In this document: positions 4,962 to 63,826 of the stretch, one piece after another
How the letters are laid out: every line of letters starts with the position of its first letter
Position numbering within the stretch: position 1 is the first letter of the stretch
NCBI GenBank assembly: GCA_963708045.1
Contig: OY970181.1
Location: 323,740-387,739 of the forward strand
Source of the DNA: an uncultured bacterium
GTDB lineage: Bacteria; Patescibacteriota; Patescibacteriia; CAIQCM01
DNA: 64,000 nucleotides
Reading direction: 5' to 3'
Made by a program: the position numbers and the translations under genes
Notes under the pieces: model-generated
What the model saw: the letters and a program-made list of their open reading frames with translations, nothing else
The model's database searches: none
What the model was told of the DNA's origin: nothing

Positions 4962-5039
4962 AAATTAGCCCATTGAGCTATTCTTTAAGCACAACTTAAT
5001 ATTGCCTAAACCGCGCCGATGGCGAGGCATGGCAGAAAT

Positions 5040-5083
5040 CCCATGACAGATACTGAACCCCGCGTTTAGCGTCCTGTCATGGG
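5040..5083. repeat. inverted repeat/hairpin cccatgacag...ctgtcatggg upstream of the recombinase gene
   Basis: Perfect 10-bp arms seen in sequence; candidate recombination site or promoter element. Confidence 0.4.
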
Positions 5084-5133
5084 TAATATTCCGAAAGGAA
5101 TATTTGGCCGCAAGGCCTAGCTAGCGCGGGGCT

Positions 5134-12176: not shown

Positions 12177-12318
12177 GCAAAGCGTTAGCTGTTAATAACA
12201 CCGTGTAAAAAATTTTTTAGATAATACAAAAAATTGTGTTAGAACGGCCTGACACATACCCCTTGAAAATTTGTCACATTTATCATAATCTCCACTTATG
12301 CCCGGGTGGCGTGCGCCC

Positions 12319-12344
12319 AAGGCGCATCCGCCTCAGGCGGAAAA
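12319..12344. repeat. hairpin motif aaGGCGCATCcgcctcaggcggAAAa (copy 1) upstream of tRNA-Leu
   Basis: Paired with the copy at 12494-12519 carrying compensatory substitutions. Confidence 0.5.
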
Positions 12345-12371
12345 TGGCAAACACATCCCGCTCATTCATAT

Positions 12372-12454
12372 GCCCAGGTGGCGGAACGGCATACGCACCA
12401 GCTTTAGGAGCTGGCACTCGCAAGAGTTTGAGGGTTCAAATCCCTCCCTGGGCA
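12372..12454 (+). tRNA. tRNA-Leu(TAG)
   Basis: GCCCAGGTGGCGGAACGGCATACGC ACCAGC-TTTAGGA-GCTGG (anticodon TAG), long variable arm, T-arm GGGTTCAAATCCC, acceptor closing CTGGGCA; 5' half nearly identical to the tRNA-Leu(TAA) at 494-576. Confidence 0.85.
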
Positions 12455-12493
12455 TATGAATGAAGGCGGGACGCCCGAAAGGGCTTGCGGGTT

Positions 12494-12519
12494 CTGCACC
12501 TGAGGCGCATCAGCCTCTG
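12494..12519. repeat. hairpin motif gaGGCGCATCagcctctggctgAAAg (copy 2) downstream of tRNA-Leu
   Basis: ccgcc/ggcgg in copy 1 becomes cagcc/ggctg here: C-to-A compensated by G-to-T, so the stem is preserved. Confidence 0.5.
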
Positions 12520-12528
12520 GCTGAAAGT

Positions 12529-12574
12529 CTCGCCTCGGGCATTTTAAAAACTCTGACCTGTGTCGGAGTTTTTA
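12529..12574 (+). terminator. 17-bp perfect-stem hairpin gggcattttaaaaactc...gagtttttaaaatgccc
   Basis: Seen directly; followed 18 nt later by a T-run; could be the tRNA terminator or a structured element. Confidence 0.45.
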
Positions 12575-13168: not shown

Positions 13169-14320
13169 GAATCCCTAATTTCAGCCATATTTTGATTATT
13201 ACCTTGGCTCTTGACGGATATTTTTGAATAGAGTATTATATCCACATTATCCACAGAGCCCGACATACTATGAGCAGTAACTTAACTCCTAATATGAAAG
13301 CCAGCGGCTAGCCGGATATTTTGTGTCCCAATGCCCGCTGGTTTGCCAGCGGTTTTCTTTTTAGAAAAATCAGTTCGGAAACTTTTTAGAGGGTGGCCCC
13401 TTACAAAAGATTCCGAAAACCTACTTCCGCGGAGGGCGGAAAGAGCAAGTCCGAATTTAGGAACGTTGACAACCAAGCAAAGAGTAATAAATGTAAGTAC
13501 GAATTTTGGTTTCCAAAAGAAATCAAAATTTCAGTTTTGTTAACGTACAAAACTGGAGCATCTAAAAATAACGTCAACGAATTTTTGTGGTTCTCGTCGC
13601 AATGGAGCAATCCAAAGCGACTACCGTCCTAGTATCAGACTGGGACGGATCCAGAATTCTCTGGAAGACATTAAGGGCGTACGGTGGATGCCTCGGCATG
13701 GAATGCCTATGAAGGACGTAGCAGCCTGCGATAAGTCACGGCGAGGTGGCAAGCAACCTTTGACCCGTGAATCTCCGAATGAGGAAACTCAATCCGATGG
13801 AAGATCGGATTATCTTGTGCTGAATATATAGGTACAAGAAGGGAACTCGGCGAAGTGAAACATCTCAGTAGCCGAAGGAAAAGAAAGAAAGGTGCAATTT
13901 TTATATCGCCTTTCGCGATTCACATGTCTTCGGATGTGTGTTCCGCGATCTGCGGTAAAAAGTTGTGCTCATTCCCCTAGTAGCGGCGAGCGAACGGGGA
14001 AGAGCTTAAACTCCAAAGTGTTAAGCATGAAAACGGGTGATATGTCGAAAGATGTGTTATCGCGTATCGTGTGGCGGTTGTAGGGCCTCATATACTATGG
14101 AGTGTTCAGACGTAAGCGTTGTTCGCCTGCATCGAACAAGCAAGGGTTACAAACGATATCTTCCCAAGCAGAACGGCCTGGAACGGCCGGCCATAGACGG
14201 TGACAGCCCGGTACGCGAATGGGGTTATCCCTTTGCAGTTTATGTTCTAGAGTAACACGGGACTCGTGAAATCCTGTGTGAAGTCGGGAGGACTTTCTCC
14301 CAAAGCTAAATACATTCCAC

Positions 14321-14360
<40 letters not shown>

Positions 14361-14980
14361 CAGCCCGGAAGGGCGATGAAAAGTATCTGAAACCGTATGC
14401 TTACAAGGAGTGAGAGTGGATAGCAATATCCATGATCGCGTTCCTATTGAAGAATGAGCCAACGAGTTTGCTGTATGTGGCAAAGTTTAAGCCCGAGAGG
14501 GCGTAGACGTAGTGAAAGCGAGCGTGAAAGCGCGTTCTCACTTATCAACTTTTGCGGTTTACCGCAGAAGTTGTTGAGTGAGTGAGTCGCATACACAAGA
14601 CCCGAAACCGGGTGATCTAGCCATGGCCAGGATGAAGTTTTACGAAAGTAAAATGGAAGTCCGAACACATAAGCTGTGCAACACTTTGTGATGAGCTGTG
14701 GCTGGCGGTGAAATTCCAATCGAACTCGGTAATAGCTGGTTCTCCCCGAAATAGCTTGAGGGCTAGCGTCGGTTAATAACTAATTGGTGGTAGAGCACTG
14801 AATGGGGAACGGTGGAGTGATCCTACGTTTCCCAACCAACCTCCGAATGCCAGTTAGTGTTCCCGACAGTCAGCACGTGGGGGCTAAGCTCCACGGTGCG
14901 CAACGGAAACAGCCGTTGATCTCCAACTAAGGACCTTAAATCTATGCTAAGTGGAAAAGGATGTGGAACGACTCAAACAA

Positions 14981-15011
<31 letters not shown>

Positions 15012-15818
15012 TAAAGAAAGCGTAACAGCTCACTGGTCGAGTTATTCTGCGCCGAAAATATACCGGGGCTAAGCATAGTTCCGAAGTTGAGGGTTCTATA
15101 ATTAACTTTATAGAGCGGTAGGGGAGTGTTTGAAACGCATTGAAGGCGAAGACGTGAGTCCCGCTGGAGTGTTTCGAAGTACGAATGTTGGCATGAGTAG
15201 CAAAAATTGATGTGAGAACCATCAACGCCGTAAGAGGAAGGTTTCCTGGGCAACGCAAATCGGCTCAGGGTGAGGCGATCCTAAGACGAGGCCGAAAGGC
15301 GTAGTCGATGGAAAAGCAGGTTAATATTCCTGCCCCTCAATGGGTCACTACCCAGACTGACGCATCAAAAATACACGGGCGCTCTTTGGTTATGCGCGTG
15401 TCTTAATTGGGCAACTGATTAGGACGCAGTCTGAACCGAAAGGGGAAGACAATCCGTGAATGTATGGTGCCCAGAAAACGTCTGGAGACTATCCTATTGA
15501 GTCCGTACCGTAAACCGACACAGGTCCTCGGGCACAAGTGTGCCAAGGCGGACGAGAGAAACATCGTTCAGGAACTAGGCAAAAAAGTGGCCGTAACTTC
15601 GGGATAAGGCCTGCCCTATCGCAAGATAGGGTCGCAGCGAGCGTCTATGAACCGACTGTTTATCAAAAACACAGGTCCCTGCTAAGTCGCAAGACGATGT
15701 ATAGGGGCTGATGCCTGGCCAGTGTCAGAACGTTAAGGGGAGATGTTGACTCCGCAAGGAGAAGGCATTGAACCGAAGCGCTGATGAACGCCGGCGGTAA
15801 CTATAACCGTCCTAAGGT

Positions 15819-16086
15819 GGACAACACTGCCTTAGTGAGGTAACAGACCTCCTTCGAACTTTGACTAGCCATTGTCAAAGAGGTAGAAGAAAATTTGGCT
15901 ATTTCGGTGAACCTCCTTGTTTAAAAACAAGGACAATACCGAGGCAACCTGCAATGTGCAGAGAGTCCGTAGAGACTACACGCCAAAGTTTAACAATTGG
16001 TTAAATAAGATATAGTCCGAACTGCTTAGTAATAAGCAGAGCGTGATTGAACACCACGCCATTACAAAGTGTAATGTAACAACAAG
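15819..16086 (+). ncRNA. group I intron in 23S rRNA (insertion after CCTAAGGT, E. coli position about 1917)
   Basis: Exon sequence CCTAAGGT | intron | AGCGTAATCCCTTGTCGGGTGAGTTCCGACC matches the uninterrupted 23S; 5' exon ends in T and intron ends in G; conserved group I core elements R (cagagagtccgtagagactacacgcc) and S (aagatatagtccgaac) are present; 268 nt, no ORF. Confidence 0.75.
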
Positions 16087-16369
16087 AGCGTAATCCCTTG
16101 TCGGGTGAGTTCCGACCCGCACGAATGGCATAACGAGTTCATAACTGTCTTGACGATGTACTCGGCGAAATTGCAAGTGGCGTGAAGATGCGCTGTACTC
16201 GCAGCTGGACGAAAAGACCCCGTGAAGCTTTACTACTCCTTGCCATTGGATCATGTTTACTTATGTTCAGCGTAGGTGGGAGCCGCAAGGCGCCAATGAG
16301 ACACCACCCTTATGTTGATATGATTCTTACTGCAAACCGTGAATCCGGTTAGCGGAACAGTGGCTGGAA

Positions 16370-16400
<31 letters not shown>

Positions 16401-16621
16401 CAGTAACGGAGGCGTTTACAAAGGTAGGCTTGGCTCGGATGGAAATCGAGCTCAAAGTGCAAACGCAGAAGCCTGCTTGACTGCGAGGGTGATGGCCCGA
16501 GCAGAGACGAAAGTCGAAGTTAGTGATCCGACGGTCCCTCAGAGGAGGGCCGAAGCTCAACAGACAAAAGCTACTCCGGGGATAACAGGCTGATCTTGCC
16601 CAAGAGTCCATATCGACGGCA

Positions 16622-16681
<60 letters not shown>

Positions 16682-16738
16682 TGGCTGTTCGCCAATTAAA
16701 GCGGTACGTGAGCTGGGTTCAGAACGTCGTGAGACAGT

Positions 16739-17114
16739 GAGAATACCCGCGCTGTCTAAAAATCAGATCCAAGTCGCAATTCACAAGATGCGAAAGGATT
16801 CCGGTGTTGTCGCAAGATAACACTGGAGCTAAATGCTGGAAAATCTGGTCCGATCTTCTTTGGAGAGAAGATCAAAGAACTCGCACTAGTCGCGCAAGCG
16901 ACTGACAACGTGACGAGCGCAGACAATCAGCAGGAAAGGTTCTTCCATTACACGTAGAACAATCAACAATGGAAAGAAAATCCTCAGAGACTACACGCCT
17001 GATAGCTAGAAACCCCTAGTGAAAGATATAGTCCGAACTCTATGGCGACATAGAGAGTGCATCAGAAATGATGCGCCGGTTCAAAATTTATTTTTTGAAT
17101 TCGCAACATAATTG
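16739..17114 (+). ncRNA. group I intron in 23S rRNA (insertion after GAGACAGT, E. coli position about 2593, the I-CreI-type site)
   Basis: Exon GTCGTGAGACAGT | intron | TCGGTCTCCTATCC; intron ends in G; R (cagagactacacgcc) and S (aagatatagtccgaac) elements shared with the first intron; 376 nt, no ORF. Confidence 0.75.
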
Positions 17115-17550
17115 TCGGTCTCCTATCCACTGCGAGCGTTGAAACTTGAAGGGATGCTTCCCTAGTACGAGAGGACCGGGAAGCACGAACCTCCCGTGTA
17201 CGTGTTGTCCTACCAAGGGCATGGCACGGTAGCGGAGTTCGGAGGCGATAAGCGCTGAAAGCATCTAAGCACGAAGCGCCCCCTAAGATTAGGTTTCGTT
17301 ATAGACTCCTCGGAGACGACGAGGTTGATAGGCAGTAGGTGTAAGGCCCGCAAGGGTTTGAGCCGAGCTGTACTAATCGGTCGAGTTCTCCAGGGAACTC
17401 TGGTAAAAAATCAGAGAACCACAAAAACGCGCTGAAGTTATTTCAGTTGCCGTACTTTACATTTAGTGAATATCGCGTCTTTTTTGATACGGTATTTGCG
17501 AACCAACGAGCGTAGCAGCGTCTTCGTTCTGTTATAAAATAAGTTCAGAG

Positions 17551-26016: not shown

Positions 26017-27280
26017 ATGGTGAATATGGAAACAATTATTGACCTGCACATCCACTCAAAATATTCGCGCGCCTGCTCTAAACTTTTGGAGCCGGCCAAT
26101 TTGGCGCTTTGGGCCGACAAAAAAGGCATTAATGTTTTAGGAACCGGCGACTTTACACATCCGTCGTGGCTAAAAGAACTTAAAGAAAATTTGACCGAAG
26201 ACCAGTCTGGACTGTTTAAATTAAAAAACGGAAATGCCAAAGCGCGTTTTATGCTTACGACCGAGATTTCGTGCATTTATAAACGCGGCGGCAAAACGCG
26301 GCGCGTGCATAATTGCATTTTTGCACCGTCGTTTGCGGCTGTTGATTTAATTATTGCCGAACTTACAAAACGTAATTGCAATTTAAAGTCGGACGGACGT
26401 CCGATTGTTGGTTTGGACTCAGAAGAGCTCTTAAAGATTGTTCTTGAAGCCTCGCCAAATTGTATGCTCGTGCCGGCGCACGCCTGGACGCCGTGGTTTG
26501 CGATTTTTGGTTCTATGTCCGGTTTTGATTCGCTTGAAGAATGTTTTGGTGAAAATAAAAAACATATTTATGCCATTGAAACTGGTCTTTCGTCTGACCC
26601 GCTAATGAATTGGCGGCTTTCAAAACTGGACGACGTCCTGCTTGTCTCAAATTCCGACGCTCACTCGCTTGGCAACCTTGGCCGCGAGGCAAATGTTTTT
26701 GATATCGCGCCGGAAAAATTATCTTATGCGGAAATAATTAGAATTCTTCGCGAAAAAGATCGCAAGAAATTTTTGTACACGATAGAATTTTATCCCGAAG
26801 AGGGGATGTATCATTTTGATGGCCATCGCGTGTGCAAAAAAAGAATGCATCCTGAAGAAACGGCAAAAAATAACGGCCTTTGTCCGGTTTGCAAAAAACC
26901 GGTGACGGTCGGCGTGTATTCGCGTGTCGCCAAGCTCGCCGATCGCGTTCGAGGGGACGCGGCCGCCCGGAATGGTGCCGTTTAAAAGCATTGTGCCGCT
27001 AGACGAAATTATCGCCGAAGCGCTAGACCGCGGCGCGGCGACCAAAGGCGTGCAAACAATTTACGAACAAATGGTTGGCAGGATGCCAGAATTTAAAATT
27101 TTACTTCACGCTCCCTATGACGAGATTATGTCGTTTGCACCGCCTGATGTTGTTAGCGGAATAAAACGCGTGCGCGAAGGAAAGTTGCAAATAGAACCCG
27201 GCTATGACGGCGAATACGGAACCGTAAAAATTTTTTCCGATTCCGAAAGAAAGAAAATGGAACAAGCGAAGTTGGTGTAA
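26017..27280 (+). pseudogene. EndoQ-like PHP-domain endonuclease (TIGR00375-like), interrupted by a +1 frameshift near 26940-26985
   Basis: N-terminal ORF (26017-26985): DLHIHSKYS PHP motif, LVPAHAWTPW, CPVCKK...GVYSRVAKLADR zinc finger. C-terminal ORF (26924-27280, other frame): ...FEGTRPPGMVPFKSIVPLDEII...PGYDGEYGTVKIF. The two overlap by 62 nt. Confidence 0.6.
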
Positions 27281-27452
27281 TAACTAATATCTAATGTCTA
27301 ATACCTAATCCGTTGGCGTCATCCCGAGGAGTGAAGCGACGAGGGAGCTCAACGTCTCTAAGCAAGCTCCGTGATTCCTCGTCAAGACAAAGCGACTAGA
27401 CGGACTCAAAATGACGGCGGATTAGACATTAGACATTAGATATTAGGTATTA
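27281..27452. repeat. low-complexity palindromic intergenic element with ctaat-repeat arms (aatatctaatgtctaatacctaatccg ... cggattagacattagacattagatattaggtatt)
   Basis: Family members at 39785-39895, 54541-54678 (3' arm missing), 37836-37912 (tagagat-type), 61543-61600 and 62668-62732 (aactttt-type). Confidence 0.65.
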
Positions 27453-27484
27453 AAAAATCCCCCGCGGGAGCGGAGGATTTTTAG

Positions 27485-40897: not shown

Positions 40898-40955
40898 AAT
40901 TTTATTTTTTAAACTAAACCCTAAACCATAAATCCTAGACCCTAACCTCTAACCC

Positions 40956-41816
40956 CTATTGATTTTCTGAAATAATTTTTCCGCCAAGCGTTCGGAGTTC
41001 GTTAAGCGCTTTTTCGGCTTGTTCGGCGTTAGGAATAATGCCGTGCCATTCAAATTTGTATTCCATAAAGTCCACGCCCTTGCCCGCGATGGTATGCGCG
41101 ATAATGCAGGTGGGACGATCTTCGGTTGCTTTGGCTTCTTCAATCGCTTCAACAAATTGTCGAATGTTGTGACCGCCAACTTCTATAACGCGCCAATTAA
41201 ACGCTTCGTATTTGGCTTTTAACGATTCAAGCGGCATTACTTTTTCGGTCGGCCCGTCAATTTGAATATTATTGCGGTCAATAATAACGGTTAAATTGGA
41301 AAGTTTGTAAGCGCCGGCAAAAAGCAAGGTTTCCCAAACAATGCCGCAGTCTTGTTCGCCGTCGCCCATCACGCAATAAGTGCGCCAGCTTTTGCCGTCC
41401 ATCCGCGCCGCATAAGCCATACCGGCGGCTTGGGCAATACCTTCGCCAAGGGGTCCTGAGGTTGTTTCAAGGCCGGGGAGGTGTAGGCGTTCCGGATGTC
41501 CCTGAAGCCGAGAACCAAATTTTCGGAGCGTGAGCAGTTCTTTAACGGGAAAATATCCAGCTTCGGCCATTGCTGCGTAACGAACCGGACAAATATGGCC
41601 AGCCGAAAGAATAAGGCGGTCACGTTCCGACCACTCTGGATTTTTTGGGTCGTGATTTAAAACGTGAAAATAAAAAGCCGCAAAAACGTCGGCCATGTCC
41701 AAAGGTCCCGCCGAGTGTCCGCTTCCGGCCGCAACCAGCATTTTAATAATGTCCTCGCGAATCGTGTTGGCCTTGGCTTCTATCGCAAGGACTTTTTTAT
41801 CGGTCAGATCAAACAT
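40956..41816 (-). CDS. transketolase, N-terminal subunit (TPP-binding)
   Basis: GDGEQDCGIVWE and HTIAGKG motifs; 286 aa. Confidence 0.8.
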   Translation of the reverse strand: MFDLTDKKVLAIEAKANTIREDIIKMLVAAGSGHSAGPLDMADVFAAFYFHVLNHDPKNPEWSERDRLILSAGHICPVRYAAMAEAGYFPVKELLTLRKFGSRLQGHPERLHLPGLETTSGPLGEGIAQAAGMAYAARMDGKSWRTYCVMGDGEQDCGIVWETLLFAGAYKLSNLTVIIDRNNIQIDGPTEKVMPLESLKAKYEAFNWRVIEVGGHNIRQFVEAIEEAKATEDRPTCIIAHTIAGKGVDFMEYKFEWHGIIPNAEQAEKALNELRTLGGKIISENQ

Positions 41817-44160: not shown

Positions 44161-47100
44161 TTGCCAAAAAACGGTAATTTAACCTCTTCCCATCGGTATA
44201 AAAAATTATATATGGCCATCCCAAAATTTCCCGAACTTGAAGAGCAGATTCTTAAAGATTGGGATAAAAACGATATTTTTAACAAAACTTTGGCAAAACC
44301 CTCGCCAAAGGGGAATTTTATTTTTTTTGAAGGTCCGCCGACCGCGAACGGCAAGCCTGGCATTCACCACCTAATTGCCCGCCACTTTAAAGATGTCATC
44401 TTGCGTTATAAGACGATGAGTGGTTTTCACGTTGAACGAAAAGCCGGTTGGGACACGCATGGTCTTCCGGTTGAAATTGAAGTTGAAAAAAAACTTGGCT
44501 TTAAAAGCAAGCGCGACATTGAGGAATACGGCATCGCCGCTTTTAACAAACAGTGTCGCGAATCCGTTTGGCAGTTTAAACAGGCTTTTACCGAATTTAC
44601 CCACCGCTCCGGCTATTGGTTGGATTTAGAGCATCCGTATATCACCTACGATCCTAATTATATGGAAACGCTTTGGTGGATCGTTAAAAAAATAAATGAT
44701 CGCGGTTTTCTTTATGAAGCCAATCGCGTCGTGCCGCATTGTCCGCGTTGTGGAACAACGCTTTCGTCGCACGAACTGGCACAAGGGTATGCCGAAACCG
44801 AAGACACTTCTGTTTTTGTGCGCTTTAAAATTTTGGATGAGCGGTTTCCAAACACGAGTTTTCTTGTTTGGACGACGACGCCGTGGACGCTGCCCTCAAA
44901 CGTCGCTTTGGCTTTGGGTGAGAAAATTTCGTATTCGCTCATTGAACTTGCAGCGGGCGAGCGGCTTTTGCTCGCGACTGATCGGCTCGGCGTAATAGAC
45001 GGCGAATTTAAAAAAATATCAGAACATACCGGCAGTGAACTTGCGAATATTTCTTACGAACCGCTTTATAATTTTATTTCCTACGACGAAAAGAGTCATT
45101 ATACGGCTTTGGCTGATTTTGTTTCCACAACCGACGGCTCAGGCATTGTTCATATCGCGCCAATGTATGGCGCCGATGACTTTGCTTTGGGCGCGAAATT
45201 AAAATTGCCGGAAAAACATTTAATTAGCGAGCGCGGCGAATTTATGGAGGCGGTTAAGCCGTGGGCTGGAATGTTTGTTAAAAAAGCCGACCCGCTGATT
45301 ATTGAAGACCTTGCGAGCAGCGGCAAACTTTATAAAACAGAAAAAATAAAACACGAATATCCATTCTGCTGGCGCTGTAAAACGCCGCTCATTTATTATG
45401 CCAAGCCGTGTTGGTACTTTAAGACAACAGCGGTTGCGAGCGAAATGATCAAGGCCAACGAAACAATAAATTGGGTGCCGGAGCATATTAAGGAAGGGCG
45501 CTTTGGCGAGTGGCTTAAAGGTGTAAAAGATTGGGCGCTCACCCGCGAGCGTTATTGGGCAACGCCGCTTCCGGTTTGGAAATGTGCGGACGGTCACGTG
45601 ACCGTAGTTGGGTCGTATGATGATTTGGAAGAAAAACGTTTTACCGCCCCAGCACGACTTTTGCTAATGCGCCACGGCGAAGCGGAAAGCAATGTTTTGG
45701 ATATGATTGCAAGCGGCGAAGCTGGGCGCAAGGCGGATTTAACGGAACAAGGCGTTAAGATGGCCAAGTCAGCGGCAAAAAAATTAAGCAAAGAAAAAGT
45801 TGTGGCGATTTATGCTTCACCTTTTATGCGCACCAAAGAAACGGCTGAGCTGGTGGCAGAGACGCTTGGTCTGCCGGTTATATTTGACGACCGGCTTCGT
45901 GAAATAAATTCTGGGGCAATGGATGGAAAAACGGTTAAAGAATTTTACATCGCTTTTCCCGAGCCGTCCGACCGTTGGACGCACGCCCCTGAAGGCGGGG
46001 AAAATTTTTCCGAAACTAGAAAACGGATGATGGCTTTTGTTCGTGAAATAAACCTGAAACACGCAGGCGAAACCGTGCTTGTTGTCAGTCACGGTGACCC
46101 GCTCTACATTTTAGACTGTGTTTTTAACCGCGTGCCAGACGATAAGCTTAAAGAATGGCGCTATCCGGAATTTGCCCACCCAACCGAAGTAATCTTGCCA
46201 AACTGGCCAATAAACGACGATGGCGAGCTTGATCCGCATCGCCCTTATATTGATGAAATAAAAATTAAATGCGACAAATGCGGCAAAGAAGCGGCGCGCG
46301 TAAAAGACGTGATGGACGTGTGGTTTGATTCGGGAGCAATGCCGCTTGCTTCGTGGCATTATCCGTTTCAAAACAAAGAGCGCATAGACAAAGGCGTGTC
46401 GTTTCCCGCTGATTATATTTCTGAAGGCATTGACCAAACACGCGGTTGGTTTTATACGATGCTCGCGGTGTCAACATTGCTCGGCTACGACGCGCCGTAT
46501 AAAAATGTCATCACCCTAAATATGGTTTTGGACAAAAAGGGTTTTAAAATGTCCAAGTCCAAAGGCAACATCGTTGAACCGCAAAAGATTTTTTCCACTT
46601 TCGGTTCCGACGCCTTGCGTTTTTATTTCTTTTCCATAAATCAGCCGGGCGACTATAAAAAATACGACGACAAAGACGTGGACGCGGTCGTAAAAAAAGT
46701 TTTTCTTATCCTTTGGAATACGATGGAGTTTTGGAAAATGTCTAAAGACATGGACCATGAATCACGCACCATGGACCATGAACATATTATGGACGCTTGG
46801 CTTAGGTCGCGCACTGGAATACTCGTGAAGACGGTGACAGAAGAATTGGAAAAATATCATCCAACCGAGGCGAGCCGTGCCATTGCCGAATTTGTTAACG
46901 AACTTTCCACGTGGTATGTACGCCGTTCGCGCGATCGTCTGCGCACTGGCGCTTCCACCGAACCGCTCAAGGACGCGCTTATGACCGTCGCCAAACTGCT
47001 TGCGCCGTTTACGCCGTTTGTTGCCGAAGGACTTTACCGTGAACTTGGTGGAGAGCTGGAATCGGTCCACCTTTGCGATTGGCCGGAATATAAGGAAAAA

Positions 47101-47646
47101 GAAATTGACGCGGAACTTTTGCATGATATGGAAAGTATCCGCAAGATTGTTGAACTTGGTCATTCACTTAGGGACGACGCGCAAGTTAAATTGCGCCAGC
47201 CGCTTGCTGAATTTGAAATAGAAAAATTATCGCTCAAAAATAACGATGAATTGCTTCCGATTATTGCCGAAGAACTTAATGTCAAAGCTGTTCGCATTGC
47301 CGACAAAATTGAAGAGCGACAAAATTGGTTAAGCAAAACAATGTCTGGCTTTACTGCCGCCTTGCGCACCGAAATAACCACCGAGCTTAAACGCGAAGGA
47401 ATGCTTCGCGAGATTATGCGTCAGATAAATGATTTGCGCAAAGAAGCCGGGCTCACTGTTTCTGATCGCATTAAATTATATTTTGACGTTGATGATGTCA
47501 CGCTTAAGTCAGTGCTTACGACGGAAAAAGAACATTTGGCAACCGGTGCCCGCGCCGACGAAGTCGTCTTTGAGCCAACGGATGCCGCGCTTGCTCGCGA
47601 ATTGGAATTTGAAGGAGTGAAGGTTAAGATCGCGATTAAAAAGTAG
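44161..47646 (+). CDS. ileS: isoleucyl-tRNA synthetase (type 2) with an embedded histidine-phosphatase (phosphoglycerate-mutase-like) domain
   Basis: HIGH-type motif PGIHHLIARHF, KMSKSKGN, editing-domain and anticodon-binding regions. Between WKCADGHVTVVGSYDDLEE and LDPHRPYIDEIKIKCDKCG lies about 190 aa with LLLMRHGEAESN...LTEQG...IYASPFMRTKETAE...VLVVSHG (RHG phosphohistidine motif). Probable start at MAIPKF (about 44212). The ORF is continuous in one frame. Confidence 0.8.
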   Translation: MPKNGNLTSSHRYKKLYMAIPKFPELEEQILKDWDKNDIFNKTLAKPSPKGNFIFFEGPPTANGKPGIHHLIARHFKDVILRYKTMSGFHVERKAGWDTHGLPVEIEVEKKLGFKSKRDIEEYGIAAFNKQCRESVWQFKQAFTEFTHRSGYWLDLEHPYITYDPNYMETLWWIVKKINDRGFLYEANRVVPHCPRCGTTLSSHELAQGYAETEDTSVFVRFKILDERFPNTSFLVWTTTPWTLPSNVALALGEKISYSLIELAAGERLLLATDRLGVIDGEFKKISEHTGSELANISYEPLYNFISYDEKSHYTALADFVSTTDGSGIVHIAPMYGADDFALGAKLKLPEKHLISERGEFMEAVKPWAGMFVKKADPLIIEDLASSGKLYKTEKIKHEYPFCWRCKTPLIYYAKPCWYFKTTAVASEMIKANETINWVPEHIKEGRFGEWLKGVKDWALTRERYWATPLPVWKCADGHVTVVGSYDDLEEKRFTAPARLLLMRHGEAESNVLDMIASGEAGRKADLTEQGVKMAKSAAKKLSKEKVVAIYASPFMRTKETAELVAETLGLPVIFDDRLREINSGAMDGKTVKEFYIAFPEPSDRWTHAPEGGENFSETRKRMMAFVREINLKHAGETVLVVSHGDPLYILDCVFNRVPDDKLKEWRYPEFAHPTEVILPNWPINDDGELDPHRPYIDEIKIKCDKCGKEAARVKDVMDVWFDSGAMPLASWHYPFQNKERIDKGVSFPADYISEGIDQTRGWFYTMLAVSTLLGYDAPYKNVITLNMVLDKKGFKMSKSKGNIVEPQKIFSTFGSDALRFYFFSINQPGDYKKYDDKDVDAVVKKVFLILWNTMEFWKMSKDMDHESRTMDHEHIMDAWLRSRTGILVKTVTEELEKYHPTEASRAIAEFVNELSTWYVRRSRDRLRTGASTEPLKDALMTVAKLLAPFTPFVAEGLYRELGGELESVHLCDWPEYKEKEIDAELLHDMESIRKIVELGHSLRDDAQVKLRQPLAEFEIEKLSLKNNDELLPIIAEELNVKAVRIADKIEERQNWLSKTMSGFTAALRTEITTELKREGMLREIMRQINDLRKEAGLTVSDRIKLYFDVDDVTLKSVLTTEKEHLATGARADEVVFEPTDAALARELEFEGVKVKIAIKK

Positions 47647-53995: not shown

Positions 53996-54538
53996 ATGAT
54001 TTCATACCTCAAGGGCAAAATAATTAGAAAAGGCGGGAATTGGGTGATTTTGGAAAATCAGAATATCGGTTACAAAATATACCTTGGCGAAAGCGGGGCC
54101 TTTGCCGCAAAAGCCGGCGAGGTGGCCGAGTATTGGACGCACGAACAAGTGCGTGATGATGGACGCGAAATTTTCGGCTTTAACGCGCCAGAAGATTTGG
54201 AATTGTTTTGGAAAATCATCACCGTTTCTGGCGTTGGTCCAAAAACAGGGCTCACGATTGTTGGCGCGGCTAAGTCGGGTTTAGTTAAAAAATGGATTGA
54301 CGCGGGCGACGTTGCTGCACTTTCGTCGGTTCACGGTGTTGGCAAAAAAACTGCGCAAAAAATTATTTTGGAACTTAAAGGGAAATTAATTGACGCGGAT
54401 GGCGGCGGCGATGAAGCGGCTGATGCTTTGGTCGGACTTGGCTATTCGCGCGACGAAGCGCGTTCCGCGGTCGCGGGGATAGAAGGAAGTGTGGAAGACA
54501 GGGTTAAGGCTGCGCTTAAGAGGTTGGGACGAAGGTAG
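53996..54538 (+). CDS. ruvA: Holliday junction branch-migration protein RuvA
   Basis: N-terminal OB fold (ISYLKGKII...), two HhH motifs (VSGVGPKTG, VHGVGKKTAQKII), C-terminal domain. Confidence 0.8.
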   Translation: MISYLKGKIIRKGGNWVILENQNIGYKIYLGESGAFAAKAGEVAEYWTHEQVRDDGREIFGFNAPEDLELFWKIITVSGVGPKTGLTIVGAAKSGLVKKWIDAGDVAALSSVHGVGKKTAQKIILELKGKLIDADGGGDEAADALVGLGYSRDEARSAVAGIEGSVEDRVKAALKRLGRR

Positions 54539-54681
54539 TATCCGAATACCTAATATCTAATTTCTAATACCTAATCCGTTGGCGTCATCCCGAAGAGCCG
54601 AAGCGATGAGGGAACTCAAAGTCTCTTAATATGCTCCGCGGTTCCTCGCCGAGCTGAGCTCGTCGGAATGACGGCTTAAAT

Positions 54682-55659
54682 ATGTTTCGTGAAATAATTG
54701 ATCAAAAAGAATGGAACGAATTGTATTCCCAGGCCATTTCGGCTTCGGGAAAATTTTTACAATCTTGGGAATGGGGCGAATTTCAAAAATCCTGCGACCG
54801 AAAAGTTTACCGACTCTCAAACGACGGCGCAATCGCTCAGATTATTGAATTGCCGTTGCCGTTTAATAAAAAATATTGGTTTTGTCCGAAAGGCCCTCTC
54901 ATGAACCATGAACCACGTACCATGAACAATACGTTTATTGATGAATTAAAAATATGCGCAAAAAAGGCGGGAGCGGTTTTTTTGTGTATTGAGCCAGCAG
55001 ACGTTATTGCTAGTGGAGGAAGTCAATCCCATGACAGAAGTCCAAGGGCGACAAGTATCGTTGATCTTACAAAATCCGAAGACGAGCTGCTTTCCGCAAT
55101 GCACCAAAAGACACGTTATAATATTAAAGTCGCCGCCAAGCACGGCGTCGTAGTTGGTTCATGGTCTCAGCCAAAGGCTGATCCGCCTCGGGCGGACATG
55201 GTTCATGGTTCATTTGATCACGTGTGGAATTTATTTTCAGAAACGGCGGCGCGCGATGGTTTTCACTTGCACCCGCGCGAATATTATGAAAGGCAGATTA
55301 AAATGCCGAACATTGAAGTGTTTATTGCCGAGTGTGAGGGAAAAATTCTAGCTGCGGCTGTTGTTATATTTTCTAACGGCGTTGCGACATATTTGCACGG
55401 TGCGTCGGCAGGCGAAATGCGTAATGTAATGGCGCCATACGCGCTGCATTGGGAAATTATAAAAAATGCCAAAGCGCGAGGTTCTATAAAATATGATCTT
55501 TGGGGAATTTCCGACGACCCCAAGTCTGGCTGGGCGGGGATCACTCGCTTTAAGCGCGGTTGGGGCGGGGTAGATTTTAGTGCACCCGGCACCTATGACT
55601 TGCCCGTAAGTCGTTTCTGGTATAGCGTTTACACGTTAGCACGCCGGTTGCGTTTTTAA
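54682..55659 (+). CDS. FemAB-family peptidoglycan-bridge peptidyltransferase carrying in-frame repeat insertions
   Basis: FemAB fold pattern (W..GWGGVDF..., KYDLWGI); ccatgaacc-type repeat at 54901-54930 and its inverse with an inner hairpin at 55156-55214. Confidence 0.65.
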   Translation: MFREIIDQKEWNELYSQAISASGKFLQSWEWGEFQKSCDRKVYRLSNDGAIAQIIELPLPFNKKYWFCPKGPLMNHEPRTMNNTFIDELKICAKKAGAVFLCIEPADVIASGGSQSHDRSPRATSIVDLTKSEDELLSAMHQKTRYNIKVAAKHGVVVGSWSQPKADPPRADMVHGSFDHVWNLFSETAARDGFHLHPREYYERQIKMPNIEVFIAECEGKILAAAVVIFSNGVATYLHGASAGEMRNVMAPYALHWEIIKNAKARGSIKYDLWGISDDPKSGWAGITRFKRGWGGVDFSAPGTYDLPVSRFWYSVYTLARRLRF

Positions 55660-60393: not shown

Positions 60394-61533
60394 CTAACGA
60401 GTGGAAAAAGCCCGTTTATACCCAGTTTGGGTAAGCTGGGCGGTTTTTGACCAAGAAAAGGTTTGCGCGCGGGCTTTTGCTGCCGATAAAATTGTCGTTT
60501 TATAGTCCGTTTCGGTCATTATTTTATGGTAGGCGTTTACAAAACCGCTAACGTCAGACGGATTTATGAGCGGAATGGTATTTCCCAACATTTCTCGCGA
60601 AGTATCAATTGCCGAAGCAATAACTGGAGTCTCGGCAAGGGCGGCCTCAAGCGGCGGCAAGCCAAAACCTTCAACTTGCGAAGTAAAAATAAGCGCGTTC
60701 GCGTTTTTGTATAAATTTCCAAGCTCGGCGTCGGAAACTAAGCCGACAAAATTAACGCGATTAAGATTATCGCCAATTATTTCTGCGGCTTGTTTTTTTA
60801 GTTGTTCGGCAAAAGCGGGGTCAGTGCCGGCGATGACAGTTGTTAGCTTTTGGTCGCTAGTCATTAGTTCTTTGGCAACCCTAAAGAATGTTTCCATATT
60901 CTTGTGCGGATAACCGGAACCAACGGACAAAATGTAGGGAGTGAGCGGATACCCCTCACCCGGCCTTCGGCCACCCTCCCCCATTTTTGGGGGAGGGTTA
61001 TAAGGAAATTGATCAACACCGTTTGGGGTGACGAATATTTTCTCTGGGGAGACTTTAATGTTCCGCAAGATGGAGTTTTTGGCGCTCTCGGAAACAGTGA
61101 ACACAATTTTTGCCCGCTTGGCATTTTCCGAAACAACAAAACGGTAGAAAAAATATTTAAACCAATATGCAATCGGGTTAAGGGTTGTAGAAGCAAGCGC
61201 TGGATGCTCCCAAAGAATCATATCGTGAATGGTAATGGCGAGTGGGGTTTTTAACCAAAGCGGCGCGTTCCAATGCGGTACGTGGATGAGGTCAAGTTTT
61301 TCTGCGTCAAAAATTTTTCCAAGTTTTGTTTGTTCGGCAAGCGTATACCAACGAATGTCGGTAATAATGGTTTTCATTTTTGGGGGCACCAAAACCGCGG
61401 CTTCTTTTCGCGTAAAGACCGTATATTCATTTTCGTTGTCTGATTCGGCAAGATGGGCGAGCAGTCGTTCCGCGTAGCGTCCGATACCGCGACTATTTGG
61501 CCCCATCAGGCGGGCGTCAATCCCTATTTTCAT
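60394..61533 (-). CDS. GT4-family glycosyltransferase containing an in-frame GC-rich hairpin repeat
   Basis: EGFGLPPLEAALAETPVIAS motif; residues FPYNPPPKMGEGGRRPGEGYPLTPYI are encoded by the 60948-61000 repeat. Confidence 0.75.
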   Translation of the reverse strand: MKIGIDARLMGPNSRGIGRYAERLLAHLAESDNENEYTVFTRKEAAVLVPPKMKTIITDIRWYTLAEQTKLGKIFDAEKLDLIHVPHWNAPLWLKTPLAITIHDMILWEHPALASTTLNPIAYWFKYFFYRFVVSENAKRAKIVFTVSESAKNSILRNIKVSPEKIFVTPNGVDQFPYNPPPKMGEGGRRPGEGYPLTPYILSVGSGYPHKNMETFFRVAKELMTSDQKLTTVIAGTDPAFAEQLKKQAAEIIGDNLNRVNFVGLVSDAELGNLYKNANALIFTSQVEGFGLPPLEAALAETPVIASAIDTSREMLGNTIPLINPSDVSGFVNAYHKIMTETDYKTTILSAAKARAQTFSWSKTAQLTQTGYKRAFSTR

Positions 61534-61591
61534 AACTTTTAACTTTTAACTTTTAACTTTTGATTGCTTCCTAAAAGTTAACAGTTAACAG

Positions 61592-62665
61592 TTAAAAGTT
61601 TTTTATTGTCTTCACCGTCTCTGCGGCGCATTTTTCCCATGAAAAATTTTTGACGCGCTCGTAACCACGGCTTATTAAAGTTTGTCGTAGATTGTTATCG
61701 CTCAAAACTTGATCAAGTGCTTCGGCAAAAGCGCCAGTGTCTCTTGGGTTTAAAAGAATTCCAGCGTCGTGAATAGTTTCTGGGAGAGCGCCGACCGACG
61801 AAGCAACGACGGGTACGCCAGCAGTCATTGCTTCTAGCGCGGGAAAGCCAAATCCTTCGTAAAATGAGGGAAAAAATAAGGCTCGCGCGTTTCGTAATAG
61901 TGCGCCTTTTTCTTCTTGAGTGACTTGACCGAGAAAGTGGATTCTGTCCGGGTGGTTCATGGTATATGGTACATGGTTCATTTGTCGTGGGCCGGCAAGG
62001 ACAAAATGGATGTCTTTGTTTTTTTGCGCGAGCAGGTTAAAGGCGGCTAAGGCCGTTTGAATATTTTTTCGCGGTTCAATAACGCCGAGGAAGAGGATGT
62101 AGGGGAAAGAGGGCGACATTCCGTGGGGATTGTGCAACGAAGATACAACCGGCGGCACGCCTGGCGGGATTACGGCGATTTTTTCCGTAGGGACTTTTAG
62201 TAGCTCGGTTAATTCGCGCGCCGTGTGACTAGAAAGGGTGATGATTTTGTCGGCGCGGGCAATTAATTTTTTTGTGTTAATTGCGCGGTGCCAAAGTCGC
62301 TCCTTTGCCGAATACCACGATGGATTAACTAAAAAAGAAAGATCGTGAACCGTTAAAATAACTCGTGCCGTTTTTTTAAACGACCAAAAATTAAGGTTGG
62401 GCAGCCAGACAGTTGGTGTTTCTAAATATTCATCAATTTTTGGATAATTTAAAAATGCGAGCGCGGCGTTTGCTAATTTACTGGGGAGAAATAATTTTTT
62501 GGTCGCGATTTTAAAATTTGGCGCGTGAGCGCGGAGCGAAACAAGGCCGCAAAATTGATTGGCGTCGTTTTGTTTTGTTAACTCAGAAATAAGCGGCGCG
62601 GCATACGCCGAAACGCCGCGGCTGGTTTTGTCTTGGAGCGAACGGAGGTCTATCCCTATACGCAT
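61592..62665 (-). CDS. GT4-family glycosyltransferase containing an in-frame ggttcatgg-type repeat
   Basis: EGFGFPALEAMTAGVPVVAS motif; QMNHVPYTMNHPDR encoded by 61953-61980. Confidence 0.75.
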   Translation of the reverse strand: MRIGIDLRSLQDKTSRGVSAYAAPLISELTKQNDANQFCGLVSLRAHAPNFKIATKKLFLPSKLANAALAFLNYPKIDEYLETPTVWLPNLNFWSFKKTARVILTVHDLSFLVNPSWYSAKERLWHRAINTKKLIARADKIITLSSHTARELTELLKVPTEKIAVIPPGVPPVVSSLHNPHGMSPSFPYILFLGVIEPRKNIQTALAAFNLLAQKNKDIHFVLAGPRQMNHVPYTMNHPDRIHFLGQVTQEEKGALLRNARALFFPSFYEGFGFPALEAMTAGVPVVASSVGALPETIHDAGILLNPRDTGAFAEALDQVLSDNNLRQTLISRGYERVKNFSWEKCAAETVKTIKNF

Positions 62666-62722
62666 AACTTTTAACTTTTAACTTTTAACTTTTGTTGCTT
62701 CCTAAAAGTTAACAGCTAACAG

Positions 62723-63826
62723 TTAAAAGTTGCCGTTAAATTTGGTATATTCCCTCTCCACAAACTCGGAAATATTTTTGTGAAAATTTTGCGTTGAAAA
62801 TTGTTCGGCGTGGTTTCTGATTGTCATCGCGTCGTACTTGCTCGCGTCAAAATTGAGCAAGCGGTCGGCCAGCGTTTCCCAATCTTGTTCATCAATTAAT
62901 TCGCCAGAAAGGCCGGGGATGACGGTTTCCAGAGCGCCGCCCGCGGCATACGCCAAAACCGGTCGTCCGGCCGCCATTGCTTCAACAACCGTGATGCCAA
63001 AGTCTTCTTCTTGCGGATTTATAAAGGCGAGGCAATTATTATAGAGTTCAATTTTTTCTTTGTCGGAAACCGCACCCAAAAATTCTACCGTGCCCTTGGC
63101 GCGATTTTTTAAATCATTAAGCGCTGGGCCATCGCCGAAAACTTTTAGCGGCAAGCCGAGCCGCGAGCAGGCGTCAACGGCAATGTCAAAACGTTTGTAA
63201 TTGACAACCCGTCCGCCGATTAAAAAATATTCGCCCGGTTTGCCCGTAATGGAAAATTTTTTAACATCAACCGGCGGATAAATTAGCGTGGAATCGCGAC
63301 GATAGTATTTGGAAATACGCCTGGCGACGGTTTTGGAATTGGCGATAAAACTGTCCACGCGATCGGCGGCAGCTTTGTCCCAAAGGCGCAGGTTGGGGAG
63401 GAGTGAGCGGACAACGGCTTTAACCAATGGGCCGTGGCGCAAGTCGGCGAGGTACGAGTGTGTGTCTGACCAAAGGTAGCGCGTCGGCGTATGGCAATAA
63501 CAAACGTGCAAAGTGTGGTCGCCTGTGATAACGCCTTTGGAAAAAGCCGAGGTTGAAGAAATAACCACGTCAAAAGCGGAGAGGTCAAAACTCTCCGTGG
63601 CTTTGGGCATGAGCGGCAAGAGCCATTGATAGTGAGCTACGCCGCCGGGAATTTTCTGGAGCCAGCTTGTGCGAATGTCTTTTCCTTTGAACATCGCGTT
63701 TGCTTTGTCCTTGTCGTTGAAAAGGACAAAGGTTGGCGCTTTGGGATAAAGATTTTGCAACTCAAAAAGAGTTCGTTCCGCCCCGCCGTCTTGTGCCAGA
63801 TAGTCGTGAATCAACGCTATTTTCAT
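62723..63826 (-). CDS. GT4-family glycosyltransferase
   Basis: EDFGITVVEAMAAGRPVLA motif. Confidence 0.75.
   Translation of the reverse strand: MKIALIHDYLAQDGGAERTLFELQNLYPKAPTFVLFNDKDKANAMFKGKDIRTSWLQKIPGGVAHYQWLLPLMPKATESFDLSAFDVVISSTSAFSKGVITGDHTLHVCYCHTPTRYLWSDTHSYLADLRHGPLVKAVVRSLLPNLRLWDKAAADRVDSFIANSKTVARRISKYYRRDSTLIYPPVDVKKFSITGKPGEYFLIGGRVVNYKRFDIAVDACSRLGLPLKVFGDGPALNDLKNRAKGTVEFLGAVSDKEKIELYNNCLAFINPQEEDFGITVVEAMAAGRPVLAYAAGGALETVIPGLSGELIDEQDWETLADRLLNFDASKYDAMTIRNHAEQFSTQNFHKNISEFVEREYTKFNGNF

Follow-up and report, generated by a model that had tools for sequence, protein, structure and literature searches.

What are two repeat-like segments doing inside the coding sequence of a FemAB gene? 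The segments (54901-54930 and 55156-55214) lie in a FemAB-family gene for a peptidoglycan bridge-forming aminoacyl transferase (54682..55659, +; 325-aa open reading frame (ORF); Pfam FemAB, PF02388, E=2.3e-40), which is carried by a 64,000-nt stretch, here called the window, of contig OY970181.1 (assembly GCA_963708045.1) from an uncultured member of the Patescibacteriota. An original prediction, made from this DNA alone, had read them as two copies of one in-frame repeat, one of them with an inner hairpin, and its reading of both segments is borne out letter for letter. We propose that the segments probably belong to two families of very small dispersed repeats, a heptanucleotide array and a 15-nt hairpin module, whose copies are translated as passengers in permissive loops of FemAB.

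The first segment, atgaaccatgaaccacgtaccatgaacaat, occupies a slot here termed S1 and consists of the heptamer array ATGAACC ATGAACC ACGTACC ATGAAC(AAT) (54901..54930, +), translated as M74-N83 (MNHEPRTMNN). Its description as a repeat is correct, but Tandem Repeats Finder (TRF) resolves it as a tandem array of a 7-nt unit (54900-54927, period 7, 4.0 copies) and not as a unique 30-mer. The second segment, ggttcatgg-tc-TCAGCCaaaGGCTGA-TCCGCCtcgGGCGGA-cat-ggttcatggttcat-t, marks slot S2 and can be parsed as GGTTCATGG TC [TCAGCC AAA GGCTGA][TCCGCC TCG GGCGGA] CAT GGTTCAT GGTTCAT T. The left part of its array (TGGTTCATGGTC; 55155..55166, +) is the reverse complement of the S1 unit, the right part (CATGGTTCATGGTTCATT; 55197..55214, +) is resolved by TRF as a tandem array (55197-55213, period 7, 2.4 copies, 100% match) and forms an inverted repeat with 54901-54918, and TGGTTCATGGT stands as a direct repeat at 55155 and 55199. 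The two segments are indeed one repeat in opposite orientations, with the heptamer of S2 on the other strand and split by 30 nt, and both are in frame within the ORF, yielding the predicted peptides LMNHEPRTMNN and GSWSQPKADPPRADMVHGSF. The motif CCATGAACC is present in 4 copies against 0.32 expected (4 reached in 0 of 100 shuffles), the 13-mer ATGAACCATGAAC with at most 2 mismatches in 9 copies against 1.3 (9 reached in 0 of 100 shuffles), and CCGCCNNNGGCGG in 2 copies against 0.13. The arms 54901-54918 and 55196-55213 show 94% complementarity across 18 nt; the exact inverted match between the S1 and S2 arms is only 15 nt long and is equalled by 1 of 200 codon shuffles, so that the case is built on the motif counts and not on the single S1/S2 pair.

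The same family, ATGRACC, occurs in three genes of the window: at 46749 in the gene for isoleucyl-tRNA synthetase (IleRS), at 54901 and 55197 in FemAB, and at 61953 in a GT4 glycosyltransferase gene. The IleRS array, ATGGACC ATGAATC ACGCACC ATGGACC ATGAAC (46749..46783, +; peptide MDHESRTMDHE; Pfam class I tRNA synthetase), was placed in a variable loop by comparison with the solved IleRS 1ile, and the glycosyltransferase gene (61592..62665, -) carries ATGAACC ATGTACC ATATACC ATGAACC on the gene strand (61953..61981, -; peptide MNHVPYTMN). Since 7 leaves a remainder of 1 on division by 3, the reading frame changes from each unit to the next until all three have been used, and ATGAACC gives an A-TGA-ACC stop in every third unit, so that a TGA-containing unit must be mutated once per three units. 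The unit altered in the window is exactly the stop-making one, ACGTACC in FemAB, ACGCACC in IleRS and ATATACC in the glycosyltransferase, which argues that the arrays are under translational constraint and are read through. Among 171 FemAB genes, 0 of 72 arrays hold an in-frame stop, despite a stop triplet in the consensus unit of 17.

Heptamer arrays form a class of their own. A periodicity scan of the window found 13 arrays of period 7 and 0 of periods 4-6 and 8-12. Two other families of the window are CTAATNN (27278, 27421, 37834, 39784, 39857 and 54545; six arrays at four intergenic loci) and TAACTTT (61533, 61572, 62665 and 62703; four arrays making two long hairpins between glycosyltransferase genes). 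A larger sample of 171 sequences and 2.03 Mb, comprising the window and 170 related Patescibacteria loci fetched through FemAB (L numbers below), was analyzed by TRF and gave 409 arrays of period 7, more than of period 6 (76) or period 8 (163). Runs of at least 3 head-to-tail 7-nt copies, an over-represented period 7 and the presence of the unit at several unlinked loci together mark these as heptanucleotide tandem arrays. Only period 7 shows a peak in copy number, which lies at 4-4.5 units (98 arrays); periods 6, 8 and 9 fall monotonically. For arrays of at least 3.5 units, an inverted partner lies within 500 nt in 59 of 235 cases, against 5 in the control, and a direct partner in 22. Stop-free frames of at least 120 codons hold 142 of these 235 arrays (~60%), against 200 of 235 random positions, indicating that the arrays are enriched between genes, though the majority is still in likely coding sequence.

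The window FemAB has 2701 homologues, and its FemAB relatives all come from Patescibacteria assemblies; a scan of genome contigs gave at most 43% identity among the matches listed, three close FemAB loci were obtained by a metagenome scan, and ten more orthologues came from an exact-protein look-up. In an alignment of 40 FemAB sequences (A1), neither segment matches conserved FemAB sequence and both fall at hypervariable sites; the original prediction had been staked on the segments not aligning to conserved FemAB sequence in other organisms, and it survived this comparison. An AlphaFold2 model built on the alignment, with a mean predicted local distance difference test (pLDDT) score of 91.5, renders S1 as coil at residues 73-82 (pLDDT about 77) and S2 as coil at residues 161-177 (pLDDT 56-68, <50 at 164-166); both segments are predicted to be low-confidence surface coils in an otherwise confident model. 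The 72 arrays of the 171 FemAB genes are concentrated at three query positions, namely S1 (residues 70-89, 26 arrays), S1b (100-119, 30 arrays) and S2 (160-179, 12 arrays).

Comparison of the DNA of fourteen close orthologues shows how these slots are filled. Nearly all have about 4.3 units in S1, with an almost constant slot length, and the units differ by single bases (ATGAACC, ATGGACA, ATGAACA, ATGGACG, AAGAACC), each being uniform within its own array. Unrelated units occupy S1 in L161 and L169 (GATTCAA) and in L166 (CGAATGT), the latter being also the unit of L166's own array in the spacer between RuvA and FemAB. The S2 units of the window and eight orthologues (GGTTCAT, GGTCCAT, CGTTCAT, TGTCCAT) are the reverse complement of the ATGRACN family; no S2 array is present in L083, L166 and L168. 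In L171, S2 repeats that locus's S1 array in direct orientation, down to the aberrant final unit; the two agree exactly over 19 nt, where the null gives at most 13. Slots with differing units, together with this slot-to-slot copy, suggest that the arrays behave like cassettes: judged from sequence, the slots are conserved and their contents appear replaceable or copied in either orientation.

The 30 nt that split the S2 array belong to the second family. They comprise two adjacent mini-hairpins of 15 nt, in both of which a stem of 6 bp closes a loop of 3 nt: module 1, TCAGCC-AAA-GGCTGA (55167..55181, +), and module 2, TCCGCC-TCG-GGCGGA (55182..55196, +). The single inner hairpin that had been described is real and corresponds to module 2; module 1 had been missed. 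Its proposed kinship with hairpins at tRNA-Leu also stands, as members of the same family are found there at 12312, 12327 and 12510. One double mini-hairpin, TGCGCC-CAA-GGCGCA + TCCGCC-TCA-GGCGGA (12312..12341, +), lies in a tRNA-like 5' half upstream of tRNA-Leu(tag), and another, TGCACC-TGA-GGCGCA (one mismatch) + TCAGCC-TCT-GGCTGA (12495..12524, +), lies downstream of it, where it occupies the T-loop position of a tRNA-like 3' half. Perfect TNNGCC-NNN-GGCNNA modules number 5 in the window against 0.3 expected, and their only sites are FemAB and the surroundings of tRNA-Leu. The stem types are TCCGCC-NNN-GGCGGA, TCAGCC-NNN-GGCTGA and TGCGCC-NNN-GGCGCA, usually paired (30 nt = 10 codons), and the stems vary in a compensatory manner (TCCGCC/GGCGGA, TCAGCC/GGCTGA, TGCGCC/GGCGCA, CCAGCC/GGCTGG). 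The 2.03-Mb sample yields 22 perfect modules with one of the three main stems, where <1 is expected, and these have conserved stems and variable loops; the module-2 stem has 16 occurrences in 13 related loci against 0.2 expected; and 9 of the 22 modules are no more than 120 nt away from a tRNA gene, in surroundings that amount to 1.5% of the sequence. The 30-nt module pair of FemAB folds with z=-3.48 (0 of 200 shuffles equally stable), and the local fold of 55150-55220 alone is unexceptional (z=-1.26).

The insertion of this pair can be followed among relatives. Within A1, the 10-11 residues QPKADPPRAD(M) are found in the window genome alone. Read on the heptamer-unit strand, the window has ...ATGAACC ATG[TCCGCC CGA GGCGGA TCAGCC TTT GGCTGA]GACC ATGAACC, and S1 of L083 has ...ATGGACA ATG[TCCGCC AGA GGCGGA TCAGCC TCG GGTTGA]GACA ATGGACA, with identical module order, orientation and ATG|GAC junction, but in slot S1 instead of S2. 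This 30-nt double hairpin between heptamer units is absent from 12 other close orthologues. In the window its flanks are the next heptamer units and are indistinguishable from a 7-bp target-site duplication. Other GC-rich inserts between heptamer units are present in L171 and L065 (30 nt each) and in L020 (16 nt); the L171 insert, in S1, was considered as a double mini-hairpin and ruled out (z about 0), so not all array inserts belong to the TCCGCC family. In-frame modules recur in the FemAB genes of L124 and L096 and in different proteins in L095, L160 and L079, and one is inside the loop of an intergenic hairpin (L161). Taking both repeat families together, in-frame copies are present in FemAB, IleRS, a GT4 glycosyltransferase and a Mur-ligase-like gene, and they lie in low-pLDDT coils. 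The proposal that the element grows by nesting does not hold: the outer part belongs to the heptamer arrays, of which the window has 13 and related genomes hundreds, and the inner part is a separate, dispersed 15-nt hairpin module that is also found without a heptamer array, so that the nesting is one family inserted into another and not self-growth. Among further inserts seen in FemAB genes, slot S1b of L171 (3330-3400) has an in-frame palindromic insert, GCAAGGCGAAACCTCGCCATGCAAGGTTTCGCCTTGCGTGCAAGGTTTCGCCTTG, with the peptide AQGETSPCKVSPCVQGFALM and a fold of z=-6.9, and three orthologues (P0008, P0019, P0020) have the inserts VIASEAKQS, GDPTSLKLRGAS and DPSTALGTGG.

Two kinds of repeat thus come together in this gene. 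The first is an array of ~30 nt with about 4.3 copies of the heptanucleotide ATGRACC, placed in sense orientation in S1 and in antisense orientation in S2; the second, a pair of the 15-nt GC-rich modules, stands between two S2 heptamer units, adding QPKADPPRAD to the loop. The repeats are probably selfish or neutral rather than needed by FemAB, and those in FemAB itself are probably harmless decoration. Spread would plausibly occur by copy-and-paste at the DNA level, through template switching, gene conversion between arrays or some enzyme, and the hairpin module seems to target unpaired or junction positions. A more far-reaching version, which we regard as unlikely, is that Patescibacteria have an active, undescribed copy-and-paste of ~30-nt cassettes, in which arrays are written into fixed slots of genes and spacers and exchanged between them, 15-nt hairpins are inserted at unpaired positions and surface loops of envelope and housekeeping proteins are continually rewritten, either by a dedicated enzyme (a reverse transcriptase, primase-polymerase or single-strand transposase) or with RNA-level removal of the hairpins; the unpaired targets would in that case be heptamer junctions, hairpin loops and the D- and T-loops of tRNAs.

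Several points weigh against reading the segments as passengers. No mobilising gene or intermediate was identified in the window, which is ~5% of the 1.19-Mb genome and in which no PF01797/RAYT search was made, and the narrow length mode of ~30 nt is not accounted for by simple slippage. A long-range stem between S1 and S2 is predicted (z=-3.46). The RuvA-FemAB spacer array and the S1/S2 slots persist in orthologues of 58-77% protein identity, and this persistence could mean selection for something and not neutrality. The 171 loci were picked through FemAB, so that genome-wide fractions are estimates from a biased sample, and location "in a gene" was judged by stop-free frames rather than gene calls.

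The predicted stem leads to a rival explanation, in which the inverted arrays have a function as structured RNA or DNA. They would pair over ~24 bp around ~230 nt of the FemAB mRNA and serve for processing of the RNase III type, slow down translation or act on stability, while the double hairpin would decorate the stem. In the minimum free energy fold of 54890-55225, S1 pairs with both halves of S2 and the mini-hairpins are extruded (-109.3 kcal/mol, with 1 of 100 shuffles as stable); seven close orthologues keep inverted S1/S2 arrays with related units, the mismatches in L082 are all G-U pairs on the sense strand, the excess of inverted partners within 500 nt (59 of 235 arrays against 5 in the control) points the same way, and intergenic pairs make perfect long hairpins at gene junctions (61527-61604, 62658-62732). 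However, duplexes of S1 with its own S2 are not significantly more stable than those across orthologues (-25.3 vs -21.6 kcal/mol, permutation p=0.056, ten orthologues), the own partner ranks only 7th or 8th of 10 in L163 and L164, and three orthologues lack any S1-S2 pairing; S1 is unpaired with S2 in L161 and L169, there is no S2 array to pair with in L083, L166 and L168, and the two slots of L171 are direct rather than inverted copies. Moreover, S1/S1b pairs of distant FemAB genes are mostly non-complementary, and about 75% of the arrays have no inverted partner. Compensatory co-evolution of S1 and S2, as suggested by the protein alignment (MNH/MVH, MDN/IVH), was dropped as a main argument on account of the p value and the non-pairing orthologues. 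On the same grounds the stem is treated as a by-product of two opposite copies of one cassette, and a functional role for it is judged rather improbable.

The remaining alternatives concern the frame, the peptide and the transcript. The arrays would be contingency loci if slippage of one 7-nt unit shifted the frame and thereby toggled envelope genes such as FemAB and the glycosyltransferases; heptameric simple repeats are over-represented in many bacteria, repeats with units of 1-5 nt drive phase variation (PMC4692102), and the arrays do lie in envelope-related genes. We consider this very unlikely, as there are only about 4 units, of which every third is degenerate, the slot length is near-constant among orthologues, the ATGRACC family is also in the essential IleRS gene, a frame-shifted FemAB is seen in 0 of 171 loci, and the S2 array is broken by 30 nt. 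It is also highly improbable that selection acts on the segments as adaptive loop peptides of FemAB. The constant loop length in many orthologues would be consistent with such selection, but reading one DNA unit from opposite strands gives the unrelated peptides MNHEPRT (S1) and GSWFMVH (S2), orthologues conserve the periodicity of the DNA and not the sequence of the peptide, model confidence is low in both loops, and the same repeat families are also found in intergenic DNA (L161 5715/5775). Removal at the RNA level, by which the mini-hairpins and possibly the arrays would be tiny intervening sequences and hence harmless in genes and tRNA-like sequences, could explain why, in the window, L087, L089 and L164, the tRNA-like halves carry modules at the D-loop and T-loop, and why the cloverleaf that ARAGORN builds from the outer halves in the window depends on cutting the inserts out. 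Against this, modules in ORFs come only in multiples of 15 nt and without stops, a restriction that translation imposes but excision does not; the interrupted halves flank an intact tRNA of their own kind and may therefore simply be pseudogenes; and no known splicing mechanism fits, so that we give this explanation very little credence.

The tRNA-like sequences themselves have an unusual layout. At 12299-12545 of the window, tRNA-Leu(tag) (12371-12455) is seemingly nested between the halves of a second tRNA-like gene, of which the 5' half reads GCCCGGGTGGCG[30-nt double hairpin]AAATGGCAAACACATCCCGC and the 3' half GCGGGA CGCCCGAAAGGGCTT GCGGGTTC[30-nt double hairpin]AAGTCTCGCCTCGGGCA; an inverted repeat, TCATTCATAT/ATGAATGA, joins these outer halves to the inner tRNA. 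When ARAGORN was run on the tRNA-Leu and tRNA-Arg regions with introns permitted, the inner tRNA alone was called, whether or not the 30-nt inserts were retained; a cloverleaf from the outer halves of the window requires removal of both inserts and of the inner tRNA, and its anticodon depends on the cut and is undefined. A similar layout surrounds tRNA-Arg(ccg) downstream of FemAB in L087 (10975-11215), L089 (2554-2728) and L164 (1557-1700), where an intact tRNA is followed by tRNA-like pieces and, in L087, also preceded by them; in these pieces the T-loop (GGTTC|...|GAATCC) and the D-loop are split by double mini-hairpins.

Array-bearing elements are also found outside the genes. The spacer between RuvA and FemAB holds an element (54540..54675, +) that consists of a (CGAAT/CTAATNN)x5 array ending in CTAATCCGT and an imperfect palindromic core of ~95 nt; the core is homologous to 27314-27416, and 10 related loci likewise have such an array after the RuvA stop. 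In the spacers of the window (54536-54580) and of L081, L082, L083, L164, L166-L169 and L171 (58-77% FemAB identity), the array starts directly after the RuvA stop, comprises 4-5 units of CGAAT/CTAATNN (only about two in L083), ends in AATCCG and is followed by a variable GC-rich hairpin; its units put TAA (TAG on the opposite strand) in all three frames. The sequence at 27275-27456 resembles a miniature inverted-repeat transposable element, with a (CTAATNN)x5 array, an imperfect palindromic core of ~100 nt beginning TGGCGTCATCCCGA and an inverted array, and the element at 54540-54675 upstream of FemAB is a second copy of it that lacks the right arm; the pieces inside the FemAB gene do not share this appearance. 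Neither the arrays nor the spacer core nor the FemAB segment reached the gathering threshold of any Rfam 15 family, the only matches being at chance level (E up to 5). Near-identical hairpins at 61527-61604 and 62658-62732, made of (TAACTTT)x4 plus an inverted copy, stand at the junctions of three consecutive minus-strand GT4 glycosyltransferase genes, where each overlaps one stop codon and the next start codon; they may be intercistronic processing or coupling elements. A further array between two minus-strand genes (40914-40958; CTAAACC CTAAACC ATAAATC CTAGACC CTAACC...) equals (CCCTAAA)n, the plant-type telomere heptamer, which is probably a coincidence.

Other features of the window and its closest relative may be recorded here. 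The IleRS-like class I tRNA synthetase (44161-47646, 1161 aa) has a histidine-phosphatase domain (PF00300, E=4e-39) at residues 500-668, within its catalytic domain. The 23S rRNA gene (13661-17395) contains two group I introns (15809-16039 and 16729-17055), and a LOOT RNA is located at 5003-5118. The closest orthologous locus, L161 (74% FemAB identity), encodes a 301-aa reverse transcriptase (RVT_1; 255-1160, -) closely upstream of RuvA, for which no equivalent was seen at the corresponding place in the window.

Small repeats of comparable design are known from other bacteria. SDR elements, hairpins of 20-30 nt nested in the heptamer arrays (STRR) of Calothrix and Nostoc and showing compensatory stem changes, were reportedly described by Elhai et al. 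in 2008. The cyanobacterial heptamer repeats with embedded SDR appear to be the closest known system, by analogy and not by sequence or taxon. They share with the repeats described here the tandem heptamers dispersed through the genome, the embedded conserved hairpin of ~30 nt and the presence or absence between relatives. The repeats of this study differ in occurring in Patescibacteria and not in cyanobacteria, in having other sequences, in the sharp mode of ~4.3 units and the in-frame position of most arrays inside genes, and in the shape of the module (15 nt; stem 6 bp, loop 3 nt) and its enrichment at tRNA genes. The SDR5/HIP1 point of Elhai et al. 2008 is upheld by PMC5861425 and PMC3116915, SDRs are reported as confined to Nostocaceae in the former, and Calothrix heptanucleotide repeats are mentioned in PMC4692102; that bacteria have an excess of heptamers is known from the latter as a statistic without an explanation. 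The GGGNATC repeats of Xanthomonas and Nostoc are likewise genome-wide heptameric tandem repeats, mostly located between the same genes in related species and varying in length and sequence (PMC4692102); unlike them, the present units are not G-rich and many are coding, whereas GGGNATC repeats form G-quadruplexes and are intergenic.

Other families share single traits with the present repeats. Rickettsia palindromic elements (RPE) are similarly translated in frame within unrelated housekeeping genes and are apparently compatible with the protein fold (PMC10969869); however, RPE are palindromic, about 150 bp long and endowed with a conserved peptide, whereas here the units measure 15-30 nt and not 100-150 bp, the heptamer arrays are tandem, the peptides vary with frame and strand, and the sequences are unrelated and from a different clade. 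RAYT-mobilised REP/REPIN sequences are also short (20-40 nt), GC-rich hairpins that are often paired, highly repeated and placed between genes (PMC3116915, PMC3733652), but REPs are extragenic with a GTAG or CGTC head, whereas the modules here start with T[CG][CA]GCC (TCCGCC, TCAGCC, TGCGCC), have 3-nt loops and stand in ORFs and tRNA-like sequences. The GC clusters of yeast mitochondria, GC-rich palindromes 30-45 nt long, likewise multiply, fuse and nest in an AT-richer genome (PMC4478555); they belong to an organelle, however, lie mostly between genes and have neither sequence nor size in common with the present repeats. Finally, byp elements are bypassed by ribosomes, unlike the inserts here, which are in frame and free of stops.

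Within the related loci sampled, both families appear to be widespread in this bacterial group, and the family-level pattern appears undescribed; in the literature on the candidate phyla radiation (CPR)/Patescibacteria we found nothing that links the group to heptamer or palindromic small repeats. The mechanistic question posed is how heptamer arrays of a fixed length of ~30 nt originate and how the 15-nt hairpin moves. Questions about the smallest mobile elements date from the reports of cyanobacterial SDR and Rickettsia RPE, and reduced genomes of ~1 Mb with hundreds of copies could make them tractable. The repeats also flag permissive loops of otherwise conserved enzymes. If the wider pattern is true, a large part of the small in-frame length differences among Patescibacteria (CPR) proteins would stem from two families of tiny repeats and not from ordinary indels, and gene calling, alignment and structure prediction in Patescibacteria would have to allow for them.

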